Assembly: GCA_023266875.1 (NCBI GenBank)
Contig: JAHFOJ010000001.1
Span: 12,851-76,850 of the forward strand
Reading direction: 5' to 3'
DNA: 64,000 nt
Origin: Candidatus Giovannonibacteria bacterium
GTDB taxonomy: Bacteria; Patescibacteriota; Minisyncoccia; JACPKW01; UBA11713
Part shown: piece after piece, positions 2,835 to 61,601 of the stretch
Numbering within the stretch: position 1 is the first letter of the stretch
How the letters are laid out: each line of letters begins with the position of its first letter
The notes under the pieces: model-generated
Database searches by the model: none
Told to the model about the DNA's origin: nothing
What the model saw: only the letters and a program-made list of their open reading frames with translations
Translations under genes and position numbers: made by a program

Positions 2835-4364
2835 TTATTTGAAATTTAATTTAAAGCGGCTAATCGCGTTTTCTAATGCAATTTCAGTCTTCTCATTTAA
2901 GTCCCGAGATATTCGAATCGGCTCCAAAACATCTGTTTCATGCATTCGACCCAAATATTCAACAAATTCATTTTCAAATTTTGAAATATTGGCAGGCGGA
3001 ATGCCATCCAAATGACTAAAAATAGCAGTATATAAAATTGCCACCTGAAGTTCAAAAGGTATAGGAGCGCCGTTTTGCTGTTTTAAGATTTCGGTTAAAA
3101 GTTCGCCGCGTGAAATCTGCTTTTTCGTATTTTCATCAAGATCCGACGCAAATTGGATAAATGCTCTAAGCTCGCGGAACTGAGCGAGTTCGAGCCTGAG
3201 ACGAGACGCGACTTTTTTCATTGCCTTTGTCTGCGCAGCCGATCCAACGCGCGATACGGAAAGCCCTACATTCACCGCGGGTCGGATACCCTGATAAAAA
3301 AGATTTGACTCAAGATAAATTTGGCCATCAGTAATCGAAATAACATTTGTAGGAATATACGCCGCAACATCTCCAAGTTTTGTTTCTATGATCGGGAGCG
3401 CCGTAAGAGAACCTCCGCCTAATTTTGAAGACAGCTTTGCCGCGCGTTCAAGCAATCGCGAATGCAGATAAAAAATATCACCGGGATATGCCTCTCTTCC
3501 CGGTGGGCGGCGAAGAAGGAGTGAGAGCTGGCGATAAGCATCAGCGTGTTTTGATAGGTCATCATAAATAACTAGGGCATCGTGGCCGCTTTCCATAAAA
3601 TATTCGCCGATTGCGGCTCCTGCAAACGGCGCTAAATACTGCATTGATGCAGGCGCGGAAGCTGGGGCGGAAACAATTATTGTGTAAGACATCGCCCCCA
3701 TTTCTTCAAGATTTTTTAAAATCTTTGCGATTTTTGAATTCTTCTGGCCGATTGCGACATAAATGCAATAAACTTTTTGACCAGATTCATTTTTTTGATT
3801 TAAAATAGAATCAAGCGCTAAAGCGGTTTTCCCAGTCTGACGATCACCAATTATCAGCTCGCGTTGCCCTCGACCTATGGGGATCATTGCATCAATAGCT
3901 TTTGTCCCTGTATGCAAAGGCGCACTCACACTTTCCCGATCGATAACTGATGGCGCCAGTTTTTCAATTGTCATTTGTTTCGCGCTTTTTAAATTCTCAA
4001 AAGGCGCCCCCTTGCCATCGAGCGGATTTCCAAGCGGATCGATAACCCTGCCCAAAAGTTCCTCGGATACCGGTATTGAAAGCACTTGCCCGCTTTTTTT
4101 GACCCTGTCTCCAACCTTAACTTTATATCCATCCCCAAGAATTATTAGTCCAATCGATGATTCTTCCAAATTAAACGCGAGCGCGGGGATATTATCTTTG
4201 CCTGTCTCAATATATAAATATTCTTGAGCAAGAGCGCCCGAAAGACCAGAGCACTTAGCTATGCCGTCTCCAACTTCAGTTACTATGCCGATTTCCTCAA
4301 AACTCGCGTCGTCGCTGAATCTTTCTATTTCCCGCTTTAATTTTTCGACAATATCATGAGCCAT
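2835..4364 (-). CDS. atpA: F1 ATP synthase alpha subunit
   Basis: [28 protein letters not shown] motifs. Confidence 0.99.
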
Positions 4365-56769: not shown

Positions 56770-56814
56770 CAGAAAATAGTTGAAAAAAAATGATAATTTG
56801 ATAATATTGATACA

Positions 56815-57096
56815 ATGAATCCCGTTAGAGATGATAAGTTTTATTATACCTATATATTGCGCAGCAAAAAAGATCAAAGATGGTTTACTGGTTTTACATA
56901 TGATTTACGGAAGCGCTTTATAAAACGTAATTTGAAAAGTTACGTCAACAATAAATAAAGGGCAGTTTAACTTAATATATTACGAAGCTTGTAAAATGAG
57001 GGCGACGCAAGGTCGAGGGAAAAATATTTAAAAACTGGCATGGATAAGTGTTATATTAAAAATAGATTAAAGCGCTTCCTATCTCTAACGGAATGA
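56815..57096 (+). pseudogene. GIY-YIG nuclease pseudogene with two frameshifts (not in ORF track)
   Basis: Three frame segments: MNPVRDDKFYYTYILRSKKDQRWFTGFTYDLRKRF / KVTSTINKGQFNLIYYEAC / NEGDARSREKYLKTGMDKCYIKNRLKRFLSLTE*. Confidence 0.85.
56820..57092 (+). mobile_element. putative GIY-YIG-carrying element with 12-bp terminal inverted repeats and an ATGAA duplication
   Basis: ATGAA|TCCCGTTAGAGAT...ATCTCTAACGGA|ATGAA. Confidence 0.7.
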
Positions 57097-58565
57097 ATAA
57101 TAGCAAGATTCAGGATAAAATTCACCCATCCACCAAAGATTTTGGCGGGCGGGTTCATGCAATTGGCTGTGACGTGACCGAAAGACAGCTTCAAAACTCC
57201 CTTGAAAAAATTGCCGCGATCCCAAGCCTTTCATCAAAGATAGTTTGCCTGCCAGATCTCTATTTAAAAGCGCGCACAGAGGCTCCCGCGTCAATTGTCA
57301 CAGCAATAAATAACGCGATAGTGCCGACCCTTTCCGCGCCTTCACTCGGCTGTAGTATGGGCGTAATCGCGACGAATCTTACAGCAAAGGATTTAACCGA
57401 AAATACCGAGCGCGTTTTTTTTAATCACATGCAAGATGAGCTGGGTAAATATTATAACTTCTGGGACAACATCGCGGTTTGGCTTGGGCTCAAAACACGC
57501 CGGTTAAATAAGTACGACCTTTCTTTGGAAGAATTCGACGGCATCGTCAAGAGAGGGGCGAAAGCCGCAATCCAGCGTTATGGTTTTTCTGAAAAAATCC
57601 TCGAAAATATAGAATGGGGCGGATCAGTCTATTCGAATGAGGAAATTCGAAACTTGGATCTCAAAAAAATATTACCACGCTCTTCATTCACCAATGGACG
57701 TCACGATCTAGGCTACGGATTTAAAGGAAATCATTTCCTTGAGATTCATGTGATTGAAGATATTTTCGACTCAAAAACCGCTTCAGCTTGGGGGCTTTCA
57801 AAAGATCAAATTGTTATCTTCTACCACGGCGGCGGAGGCATGGTGCCATATCACATGGGGCGTTACTACGCCAATCGCATGAAAAATAATCTTAAGCAAA
57901 AATTCTTCTTAAGAATCGGAAAGTTGTTTTTTCATCTTTTTTCCATGGATGGAATAAAAAATTTCAGAGAGCGCGCGCGCTATTACTTTTTTCCCGAACT
58001 TTTTCAGGAAATTAAGGCTGATTCTATGGAAGGTATACGTTACGGGCTCGCGATTAAAGCTGCGCTCAACTACAGCTACGCTTTTAATATCGCATTAATG
58101 GCGCGGGTGCGAGATGCTCTGAAAAATACTTTCAAAGATAAGAATATTGAAATCAAACCGATATATGCTCTCGTCCATAATTCGATTATCAAAGAAAAAG
58201 TTGGGCCGCACGAGCTATTTGTACATCGCCACACATTAAATCGTGTCGAGGAAGGAAAGCCGACAATTCTTTCGGGCTTCAATAACACAATTTCTTATAT
58301 CGGTATTGGGCTAAAGCCGCCTCCAGAGACGCTCTGGTCGGCTGAACATGGCGCGGGAGAAAATATAAAACGTTTCGAGCGTGAAGGAAAATCTAGAGAA
58401 GACAGCGGCCGCGAAACTATTATTTTCAAGACAAAACCGCCCCCTGCGACGCACGTTAAACATAGAACGGCCGAGGGAGTTGATTTCGTTATGACGAAAC
58501 TTGAAGAAGCCGGATTAATGCGAAAAGTATTATCATTAAGACCGCTGGCTAGTTTTAAAGGATAA
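57093..58565 (+). CDS. divergent RtcB-fold protein
   Basis: LPD, LGCSM, GNHFLEI, YHGG, VHNS, VHR, SAEHGAG, terminal KG. Confidence 0.85.
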   Translation: MNNSKIQDKIHPSTKDFGGRVHAIGCDVTERQLQNSLEKIAAIPSLSSKIVCLPDLYLKARTEAPASIVTAINNAIVPTLSAPSLGCSMGVIATNLTAKDLTENTERVFFNHMQDELGKYYNFWDNIAVWLGLKTRRLNKYDLSLEEFDGIVKRGAKAAIQRYGFSEKILENIEWGGSVYSNEEIRNLDLKKILPRSSFTNGRHDLGYGFKGNHFLEIHVIEDIFDSKTASAWGLSKDQIVIFYHGGGGMVPYHMGRYYANRMKNNLKQKFFLRIGKLFFHLFSMDGIKNFRERARYYFFPELFQEIKADSMEGIRYGLAIKAALNYSYAFNIALMARVRDALKNTFKDKNIEIKPIYALVHNSIIKEKVGPHELFVHRHTLNRVEEGKPTILSGFNNTISYIGIGLKPPPETLWSAEHGAGENIKRFEREGKSREDSGRETIIFKTKPPPATHVKHRTAEGVDFVMTKLEEAGLMRKVLSLRPLASFKG

Positions 58566-60492: not shown

Positions 60493-61601
60493 GATTCAAC
60501 TAATTTATTCCTATAATCATCAAATGAAACATAAGGCCGGGGAGTATTTTTTGCTCCTTCGGAAAGTTTTTTCAAGAAAGTTTTGTCATTTTTAATTTTA
60601 GTTAATGATCCAACAAGCGCTGATCGATCCCCAACCGGAAAAATAATCCCGTTTTGCCCGTCTTTAACAACTTCATGGGCGAGCCCAACGTCCGTCATTA
60701 AGACAGGAAGCCTCGATCCAAGCGCTTCAAGCGCAGCAAGGCTATATCCTTCGTAATTCGATGTTATTAATAGGCAATCCGCGCTCTGATAGTAATCAGC
60801 AAGATCTTCGGCTGATTTCCATCCTTCAAAATAAACATTCCCCTCAAGCCCATATTTTGCTTCATCTTCAAGGCGCGTCCGAAGCAACCCATCGCCTACA
60901 ATTACCAGCAAAATTTCCGGTCCCTTATTTACAATTTCACGAAACGCGTCAAGCGCGAGCGATATATTTTTTTCATGAGTTAGGCGAGAAGCCATTAAAA
61001 CATATAACTCATATCCCGGGTATTTCTTTTTAATATCCAACCATCCTTTCGGCTTACTTGCATCCGAATAAATCGGCAAGACACGGATAGTTGGCAGTTT
61101 ATAGTTTATAGTTTTTAGAATGGAGTTTTTGATCCGTTCGGATACAACCCGAATTCCATCAGCTCGCGGAATCAGGAAACTAGCTAACCAAATCCTGATT
61201 TTGTTAAAAAAAGATCCTCTAAAATAGTAAGGGCTAAAAATATCCGCATGAATTTGCATCTGCCACGGAACGCTAAATTTCTTTGAAAGTTTCCAAGCTA
61301 AAAACGAATGCTCGATTTCCTGCGCGGTAATCAAATCAAATTTCTCGCGCAATAAAACTGCCCTAGCTTTTTTATATCCCTTCCAAAATCGAAATAATTT
61401 CCCATCTTTCGCATCAATTTTTATAATTTCAAGTTTGTCCAAAACCTTTGCATATTCCCGCATCCGCAAAAAAACCGCGCTCCCCGCCTCATCCACCCAT
61501 GGATCCGATGAAAACATTAGAACTTTCATCCCGTTAGAAATCCGACCCGCTGTAGGCGCGTTGGTAGAAATCTCCGGTTTCTTATTTCTAACGGGATTCA
61601 T
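60468..61601 (-). CDS. GT4 glycosyltransferase; first 24 aa derive from a repeat element (ancestral start 61529)
   Basis: SRLTHEKN, SNYEGYSLAALEA; ATG at 61601 overlaps the upstream stop (ATGA). Confidence 0.9.
   Translation of the reverse strand: MNPVRNKKPEISTNAPTAGRISNGMKVLMFSSDPWVDEAGSAVFLRMREYAKVLDKLEIIKIDAKDGKLFRFWKGYKKARAVLLREKFDLITAQEIEHSFLAWKLSKKFSVPWQMQIHADIFSPYYFRGSFFNKIRIWLASFLIPRADGIRVVSERIKNSILKTINYKLPTIRVLPIYSDASKPKGWLDIKKKYPGYELYVLMASRLTHEKNISLALDAFREIVNKGPEILLVIVGDGLLRTRLEDEAKYGLEGNVYFEGWKSAEDLADYYQSADCLLITSNYEGYSLAALEALGSRLPVLMTDVGLAHEVVKDGQNGIIFPVGDRSALVGSLTKIKNDKTFLKKLSEGAKNTPRPYVSFDDYRNKLVESWKACLKR
61530..61596 (-). mobile_element. MITE-like miniature element sharing inverted repeats with the GIY-YIG element
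   Basis: ATGAA|TCCCGTTAGAAAT...ATTTCTAACGGG|ATGAA on the minus strand; ATG-to-ATG distance 72 nt. Confidence 0.75.

Follow-up and report, generated by a model that had tools for sequence, protein, structure and literature searches.

A fossil GIY-YIG nuclease gene between inverted repeats at a start codon: the probable remnant of a very small mobile element in a candidate phyla radiation bacterium

Introduction

Among published systems, that of the Ssn nucleases and their hairpin repeats (NTS, dRS3 and SRM; Chenal et al. 2025, PMC11893778) is the closest to the subject of this study, a 272-bp inverted-repeat unit at 56821-57092 of a 64,000-nt stretch of DNA (contig JAHFOJ010000001.1, positions 12,851 to 76,850; hereafter the window) from a Candidatus Giovannonibacteria bacterium. 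In the sections of that paper on which we draw, Ssn enzymes, which consist of a single GIY-YIG domain, bind the hairpin repeats that flank their genes and cut only single-stranded DNA (ssDNA), just upstream of the repeat; a role in the control of transformation is proposed for SsnA of Neisseria. The source genome of the window (G000; 684 kb in 25 contigs) belongs to the candidate phyla radiation (CPR). An initial annotation of the window had proposed that a GIY-YIG nuclease mobilises the unit, an unusual idea that is not wholly new, since Chenal et al. remark that the repeat-ssnA-repeat arrangement (NTS-ssnA-NTS) looks like an insertion sequence and draw an analogy with IS200/IS605 and REP elements, transposition not being demonstrated there. 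The explanation that we find best as a whole, with moderate confidence, is that the unit is one copy, now decayed, of a widespread inverted-repeat element with a minimal, 86-residue GIY-YIG nuclease as the product of its sole gene, and that it was likely inserted into the ATGAA of the start of an RtcB-family gene, duplicating TGAA. The unit is a fossil copy of a real, very small and probably mobile element family.

The family shares with the Ssn system a single-domain GIY-YIG protein of about 90 residues (83-87 here) and inverted-repeat sequence on either side of its gene, the same sequence recurring in many gene-less copies of these genomes. It differs in that the flanks are half-stems that pair across the whole gene, whereas the Ssn repeats, as set out in the relevant sections of PMC11893778, are self-contained hairpins of 20-50 nt. 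Here, in addition, the right half of the stem is coding, a second, internal helix covaries, and CPR copies lie on start codons in one orientation, with a 4-5-bp duplication and a stop taken from the target. A term search of 12 of the 14 supplementary files of PMC11893778 (files 13 and 14 left out) returned none of the names Patescibacteria, Parcubacteria, Saccharibacteria and Omnitrophota, and a literature search of limited coverage found no description of this CPR element.

The unit in the window

The unit is adjoined on each side by ATGAAT (56815-56820 and 57093-57098; all features of the unit are on the + strand). Its left arm, CCCGTTAGAGAT (56821-56832), and right arm, ATCTCTAACGGA (57081-57092), are complementary at 11 of 12 positions and enclose 248 nt, the last base of the right arm having mutated from G. 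The interior matches the Pfam family GIY-YIG (PF01541) with 27.7 bits across three TAA stops, and the 47-residue N-terminal open reading frame (ORF) alone scores 21.6 bits, slightly below the cut-off of 22.6. Alignment of the window copy with 73 intact nuclease relatives placed two frameshifts, a 2-nt deletion (56931-56932) and a 1-nt deletion (56993-56994), and the lost bases are present in 100% of the 73 relatives at both. The initial annotation had put these frameshifts near 56935 and 56993, where they indeed lie (after 56931 and 56993), and its other observations, of the arms, of ATGAAT on both sides, of a decayed GIY-YIG gene and of an RtcB-like gene, hold as well.

In an alignment with an intact relative, the three pieces of the dead gene correspond to residues 1-27, 37-52 and 54-85. 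In this copy the nuclease frame starts at the ATG of the left ATGAAT, and its N-terminal fragment (56815-56958) runs for 47 codons to a TAA at 56956-56958. The last piece ends in LSLTE, the C-terminal SLT(G/E) being encoded by the right arm, and is followed by a TGA (57094-57096) that overlaps the ATG of the host gene at 57093, as had been described. Intact relatives keep Y3, Y5, Y16, R26, H30 and E62. In the window copy Tyr16, of the YIG motif, reads Phe, and ungapped extension suggests that His30 reads Arg. With two frameshifts, three stops and the change of Tyr16 to Phe, neither the catalytic residues nor the open frame are intact, and the window copy is therefore a dead element, a fossil.

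Nuclease relatives and their arms

A pattern search for long arm pairs over 301 genomes of the class, with a gap of 225-255 nt, detected them at 16 loci in 13 genomes, which is a lower bound because elements longer than 273 bp were missed by the pattern. The seven of these 16 loci that looked like nuclease genes were translated; all seven contained a GIY-YIG frame, intact in six. An alignment of the six intact proteins was then used to search a collection of species genomes, yielding at least 569 nuclease relatives, of which the best 80 are 64-76% identical. By their record labels, 43 of these 80 come from CPR bacteria and 31 from Omnitrophota, Planctomycetota, Desulfobacterota, Nitrospirota, Bdellovibrionota and others. 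The relatives have 83-87 residues, typically 86, in one GIY-YIG domain, and an intact one scores 61.5 bits to PF01541. Searches of viral contigs returned no relative, and plasmids gave only four distant UPF0213-like matches, so that no bridge to a named Ssn homolog was obtained.

The nuclease and the arms travel together. Both arms (at most one mismatch to the 10-mer) bracket 75 of the best 80 relatives, which bears out the expectation of the initial annotation that the repeats accompany GIY-YIG genes elsewhere, and in 68 the arms are complementary at 12 of 12 positions. All but one of the elements so defined measure 272-283 bp, the exception being 334 bp long. Where arm positions vary, the two arms of a copy agree (GCC with GCC, GTC with GTC, and one G-to-C change present in both). 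Among these best 80, the nuclease has an ATG of its own 15-28 nt after the start of the arm, the right arm encodes its C-terminal SLTG, and its stop codon is supplied by the flank, as TGA in 45, TAA in 8 and TAG in 2 of 75 copies; in CPR bacteria this flanking RTGA is for the most part the start of the host gene.

Copies without the nuclease gene

The same arms occur widely without the gene. The whole of G000 contains 28 non-overlapping inverted-repeat arm pairs of 27-272 nt, and the nuclease gene is present in one of them, the window copy; other GIY-YIG genes of this genome are without these arms. The arm sequence CCCGTTAGARA occurs 30 times in G000, compared with once for a reversed control. 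Its distribution is patchy, with 0-3 occurrences in most of 41 related genomes and 63 in G004, 72 in G018 and 33 in G039 (reversed controls 0-3). Within the window alone the 11-mer is weakly enriched (seven matches with at most one mismatch against 2.63 expected), and 3 of 100 shuffles reached seven.

Gene-less copies sit at unrelated gene starts. At 20 of the 28 units in G000 an ORF of at least 80 aa begins at the base adjoining an arm, compared with 1.3% of 20,000 random positions, and 19 of the 38 units of G004 are placed likewise (1.75% at random); the initial annotation's picture of an insertion family on start codons is thus upheld. Judged by eye from their N-termini, the genes behind the units of G000 look like housekeeping genes (SSB, topoisomerase I, S13, S11, YidC, IF-2, RbfA, UvrB and L2). 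The window itself contains a second, gene-less copy of 66 nt on the minus strand (61530-61595), with arms CCCGTTAGAAAT complementary at 12 of 12 positions. On that strand it reads ATGAAT-element-ATGAAA, and its 72 nt are in frame with an ORF of 353 aa, whose N-terminus is glycosyltransferase-like by eye only.

Some copies are very short and almost purely palindromic, such as the 27-nt unit at G000:C9:31008-31034 and units of 27-48 nt in G004. Others enclose a whole tRNA gene, the arms prolonging its acceptor stem: one case is found in G000 (C14:49637-49725) and four in G004 (C1:38270-38375, C1:72192-72295, C3:20953-21055 and C4:106332-106438). Two identical 96-nt copies lie 561 nt apart at G000:C13:3389-3484 and 3950-4045, each followed by GTGAATGACAAA; one opens an IF-2-like gene and the other an ORF of 149 aa, and the pair is a local duplication that took in the element and the first codons.

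In these respects the family resembles miniature inverted-repeat transposable elements (MITEs) and palindromic repeats such as Correia/NEMIS of Neisseria, ERIC, RUP and the Rickettsia palindromic elements, with short terminal inverted repeats, target duplications and many gene-less copies, and also in co-transcription with neighbours and occasional in-frame insertion. To our knowledge, however, the parent elements of described MITEs have DDE or other established transposases, whereas the only form here with a gene, which has a length of just about 275 bp, codes for a GIY-YIG hydrolase.

Two conserved helices and the nuclease fold

Both the arm-to-arm helix and an internal helix covary. Folding of 73 distinct elements with RNAalifold gave an arm helix of 14 bp and an internal helix of 10 bp, the latter joining codons LRKRF, about 100 nt into the element, to codons LKRFL directly inside the right arm. 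In the window its two halves are GGAAGCGCTTTA (56909-56920, codons RKRF) and TAAAGCGCTTCC (57068-57079, codons LKRFL), which pair at 12 of 12 positions. Cells in the helix columns are paired in 97% of cases, compared with 30-48% after a shift of the partner by 1-3 columns, and 14 helix pairs change on both sides, including GC60/AT8, AT43/GC17/CG6, CG51/TA13 and TA27/CG23/GC7. G-T pairs exceed A-C pairs by 32 to 8, indicating a structure of the sense strand, either RNA or top-strand DNA. The window copy has kept both helices, into which it is predicted to fold as single-stranded DNA at -31.7 kcal/mol (z = -2.94), and 0 of 200 shuffles were as stable.

For the protein, an intact relative was modelled rather than the broken window copy. 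The prediction is a confident GIY-YIG fold (predicted local distance difference test, pLDDT, 91.6) whose nearest solved chains are 1zg2 (UPF0213), Slx1, which is a structure-specific nuclease, I-TevI and UvrC N-terminal domains. A search of the PDB with the nuclease returned UPF0213 proteins only (1.2e-11), and NCBIfam gave only a weak match below threshold.

The target site

The ends of the element were examined through the bases just outside CCCG...CGGG, which are complementary in 68 of 75 nuclease copies. By eye, the bases just outside the arms also pair in 31 of the 32 start-codon copies of G000 and G004, and flank positions 2-5 are identical on the left and right in 28 of the 32. The copies read ATGAAT-...-ATGAA or ATGAAC-...-GTGAA. 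Because the outer bases are complementary, the element would have arms of 13-14 bp (AY-CCCG...CGGG-RT) and a target duplication of 4-5 bp, (A)TGAA, and its last base would rebuild the start codon of the host gene as ATG or GTG. The left ATGAAT of the window (56815-56820) would accordingly comprise the left copy of the duplication (A + TGAA) and T, the outermost base of the left arm.

Two copies among ribosomal protein genes allow this to be compared with related genomes. Between rpmJ and rpsM, the left ATGAG keeps the stop codon of L36 (GGA TGA) and the right ATGAG keeps the start of S13, and the insert is absent in 9 of 9 relatives. The rpsM-rpsK spacer measures 121 nt in G000; of nine relatives, eight have a spacer of 1-26 nt and one has a different palindromic insert. 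S11 starts with GTG in G000 compared with ATG in 9 of 9 relatives. From these comparisons it follows that the flanking repeats are duplicated host sequence, as the initial annotation had supposed. The two sites are empty at the level of orthologs, and no strain-level pair of filled and empty sites was seen. Since other duplications in G004 read TTTA, TCTA, TCAA and CTCG, the target word is a preference and not absolute. The duplication is wanting at the rpsK copy and at 18 of 28 non-CPR copies. Taking these data together, we consider it very probable that the window unit belongs to a mobile family and was inserted at a start codon.

At the same spot of the rpsM-rpsK spacer, the related genome G002 has an insert of 111 nt with imperfect inverted ends, CACCCTCCCAAACTTTT and AAAAGTTAGGCGGGTAA, which differ in sequence yet are similar in style. 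It is either a second hairpin family or a diverged cousin.

Orientation and expression at the host gene

The host gene of the window unit is that of an RtcB-family RNA ligase of 490 aa (57093-58565, + strand; Pfam RtcB, PF01139, 156 bits), whose start codon is the ATG of the right ATGAAT. For 40 distinct copies in CPR records, the start of an ORF of at least 80 aa was located 30 times at the 3' end of the nuclease gene and not once at its 5' end, counts that are not fully independent because some copies are at orthologous sites. This polarity would fit a reliance on host transcription and on the overlap of stop and start codons. The initial annotation had gone further and proposed that the element takes over the promoter and ATG of the host for its own nuclease. 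The co-directional arrangement agrees with this as regards transcription, but intact relatives mostly use an ATG of their own inside the element rather than that of the host.

The gene-less copies follow a similar arrangement. Of the 39 at start sites in G000 and G004, 32 carry a start codon 6 nt to the left of the arm. A frame read from this left RTG extends as far as the right arm or the start of the host gene in 21 of these 32 copies, compared with 6.3 when the interiors are shuffled. Thirteen of the 21 read-throughs end in RTGA, four end at the TAA of the arm and four fuse in frame with the host gene. Six of the 13 RTGA endings belong to one 107-nt subfamily of G004, in which 5 of 7 copies keep an open frame of 38 codons, so that the count of 21 is inflated by shared descent. 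At the family level, the start-codon logic is well supported. Translational coupling through ATGA, which the initial annotation had inferred for the window, would fit the family, in which the host RTGA supplies the stop; in the window copy it is broken, because the frameshifts end translation at 56956-56958, ahead of the RtcB-family gene.

The open copies of the 107-nt subfamily (G004 C1:118350, C1:146987, C1:166263, C2:89220 and C2:179680) encode MNPVRNS...LLVKFLTG, followed by a stop on the host start, and the frame is kept despite a nucleotide divergence of 10-30%. Their C-terminal end recalls that of the nuclease.

The rebuilt ATG or GTG, the stop-start overlap and the open upstream frames would make insertion at the start codon of an essential gene nearly harmless. 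They also affect the annotation of ultra-small genomes, in which such copies can appear as false N-terminal extensions (MNPVR...), changes of start codon from ATG to GTG, long "leaders" in ribosomal protein operons and extended tRNA stems.

What moves the element

That the nuclease is the mobiliser of the element is plausible but unproven, and on sequence grounds we regard the chances as evenly balanced. In its favour are the near-constant bracketing of the gene by arms, with coding sequence shared by the repeat and the helix, the spread of the unit across phyla, the published activity of Ssn enzymes at their flanking hairpins, and the confident GIY-YIG model with UPF0213 proteins and Slx1 as its nearest solved chains. 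In the mechanism envisaged, the nuclease would be made from the host transcript; translation would terminate at RTGA and be taken up again on the host gene by the same ribosomes, which would keep the cost of an insertion low. By analogy with the published Ssn enzymes, the nuclease would bind the stem of the arms, together with the internal helix, in single-stranded DNA; it could then cut at the base of the stem, beside TGAA, and so drive copying into other TGAA sites. More tentatively, the family may represent DNA transposons of a new class. Each would be self-contained, about 275 bp long and composed of a single gene for an 86-residue GIY-YIG hydrolase; the ends of the gene itself would serve as terminal repeats, and the two-helix stem of the element would be cut by the enzyme as ssDNA. 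In CPR bacteria such an element would land in one orientation on the TGAA of start codons, borrow the transcription and the stop of the host and hand the ribosomes back through RTGA; it would have spread between phyla and given rise to gene-less and tRNA-carrying derivatives.

Were the nuclease to move the unit, few of the autonomous mobile elements known from bacteria would be as small. The unit would then be a jumping gene of an undescribed bacterial kind, the first of transposon-like character to depend on a bare GIY-YIG hydrolase, and would turn the speculation of the Ssn paper into a testable case. Enzymes of the family could also broaden the set of sequence- and structure-specific cutters of single-stranded DNA.

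Several findings weigh against this reading, or against the insertion at the RtcB-family gene that it includes. The initial annotation had looked to orthologs of the RtcB-like locus for an empty site, and none was found there: a single family ortholog, at 42% identity, was available, a scan of metagenome contigs with the RtcB-family protein found no ortholog, and the single DNA run containing the locus, probably its source, shows no joint across 56815-57093. No RNA run was listed as containing the locus, and that of the same sample gave no match to it. Other contigs that were matched share only the arms and flanks with the window locus. Outside the CPR, many copies have TTTAC on the left with no match on the right, a 4-nt repeat is present in 10 of 28, and only 1 of the 28 abuts an ORF. 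Co-occurrence is weak at the level of genomes: among the 41 related genomes, an intact full-length nuclease (at least 138 bits) is found in 4 of 12 with at least eight arms compared with 2 of 29 with fewer (p=0.05), and in 3 of 11 compared with 3 of 30 (p=0.32) once the nuclease copies' own arms are subtracted. The richest genome in arms, G018 with 72, and G039 with 33 are without a nuclease of this clade. The arms of gene-less copies in G000 and G004 mostly end in AGAAAT or AGAAAA, and those of nuclease copies end in AGAGAT or AGAGAC, the difference being at position 10, so that the gene-less copies are not simple deletion products of resident nuclease copies. The tRNA genes between the same arms imply that the arms can carry cargo unrelated to the nuclease. 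Finally, GIY-YIG hydrolases form no covalent intermediate, and a hydrolase of this kind therefore cannot rejoin DNA alone.

The strongest rival, which we nevertheless consider rather doubtful, holds that another factor moves the arms, be it slippage in replication or repair or an unknown factor, and that the GIY-YIG protein is a repeat-associated single-strand nuclease with a role in the host, of the kind proposed for SsnA of Neisseria, or one cargo among others. The weak co-occurrence, the arm-rich genomes that lack the clade nuclease, the tRNA genes and the difference in arm variants all speak for it, as does the fact that the tested role of Ssn, within the parts of PMC11893778 drawn on here, is modulation of transformation only and not transposition. 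However, 75 of the 80 clade members keep both arms, at fixed positions and with matching variants; the arms and the internal helix, which covary, share bases with the coding sequence; and neither the 30:0 orientation nor a stop derived from the target would be expected of mere cargo. Moreover, the gene and its arms are found together in many phyla, with 64-76% identity, and beside host genes that are unrelated to one another, from which it follows that it moves as a unit.

A second rival, which we judge unlikely, takes the palindromic hairpins as primary and the nuclease gene as a later invader that homed into its own palindromic site, the terminal repeats being the two half-sites. Nearly pure palindromic units of 27-48 nt do exist, and homing endonuclease genes typically split their target. 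The family also has the catalytic fold and the selfish spread of its own gene in common with GIY-YIG homing endonucleases (I-TevI, phage Seg/Mob). These enzymes, however, have a separate DNA-binding domain and one allelic target site, often in an intron, whereas the protein here is a bare catalytic domain of 86 residues with copies at many unrelated genes, and its scores of 19-21 bits to TIGR01453 lie far below the 56-bit cut-off. Arms of 12-14 nt would be short for homologous repair, the coding right arm and the extra helix to an internal site are unexplained by a simple split target, and the arm variants of nuclease copies are rare among the hairpins of the same genome.

Much less probable still is mobilisation in trans by Y1 proteins of about 230 residues (IS200-like or RAYT-like), as is thought for REP/REPIN. 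The likeness to IS200/IS605 and REP/RAYT systems lies in the recognition of ssDNA hairpins (predicted here), in very small elements and in short, specific target words, and Y1_Tnp matches occur in G000 (4), G004 (4) and G018 (5). Those systems differ in using HUH Y1 transposases that act through a covalent intermediate; Y1 elements produce no target duplication, and target duplications are present here. Nor is there an association with Y1, which is found in 8 of 12 arm-rich genomes and in 17 of 29 that are poor in arms (p=0.73). Y1 is absent from genomes with 33 and 24 arms, and arm-free genomes have 4-6 copies. That Y1 transposases act on DNA hairpins is also pointed out in the Discussion of PMC11893778. 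Altogether, Y1_Tnp proteins occur in 25 of the 41 related genomes, with up to eight per genome; those of G000, of about 225-260 residues, are at C2:5591-5863, C22:10805-11032, C14:33013-33234 and C9:42758-42976.

Least credible is the view that the arms are immobile and form a host stem for RNA processing or regulation before start codons and around tRNAs, for although the arms adjoin start codons and extend tRNA acceptor stems, and the excess of G-T over A-C pairs points to a sense-strand structure, their copy number varies from 0 to 72 among relatives, orthologous sites in family relatives are without the unit, the duplicated flanks are specific to the host site, distant phyla have the same unit and the window has no Rfam match. 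Other known movers and structures were set aside. DDE_Tnp_1 is found in 0 of 5 genomes, and rve in one of the five (G000:C24), where it lies away from all elements; integron attC sites do not fit, the core-like words here standing in the opposite order; and translational bypassing does not apply to elements that lie at gene starts and not inside frames.

Neighbouring signals and other GIY-YIG insertions

Upstream of the unit, a promoter-like site (56780-56807, + strand) consists of TTGAAA, a spacer of 16 nt and a TG-extended TAATAT. It ends 7 nt upstream of the ATG at 56815, the distance that the initial annotation had given for its extended -10 box, and would place the start of the transcript at or beside this ATG. 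A second such site (TTAAAA, 18 nt, TG-TATATT) lies at 57028-57057 of the window, within the 3'-terminal part of the dead nuclease gene, and is directed towards the RtcB-family gene. Both are consensus matches only, from a scan that returned six sites compared with 2.7 +/- 1.7 in shuffles. The window was also scanned against Rfam and for tRNA genes, with no match in either case.

Small GIY-YIG genes have been described in CPR bacteria in another setting. In the portion of PMC11270868 considered here, rRNA genes of CPR bacteria carry GIY-YIG genes in insertions that are not introns, and homing is doubted. The present family resembles these in combining small GIY-YIG genes with hairpin-bounded insertions in CPR genomes; it differs in that those insertions lie in rRNA genes, and the insertion in the 23S gene of G000 itself has different repeats. 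At G000:C10:7126-7236, a GIY-YIG fragment lies within an insertion bounded by 19-nt inverted repeats in a gene that is 23S rRNA-like by eye.

Two further small GIY-YIG genes of G000, at C19:43395-43607 and C20:4794-4997, lie directly upstream of genes that by eye are tRNA-Gly-like and tRNA-Asn-like, respectively. Upstream of each is a short copy of the 5' end of that tRNA, the pattern to be expected had a nuclease element of a different kind entered the tRNA gene and restored it.

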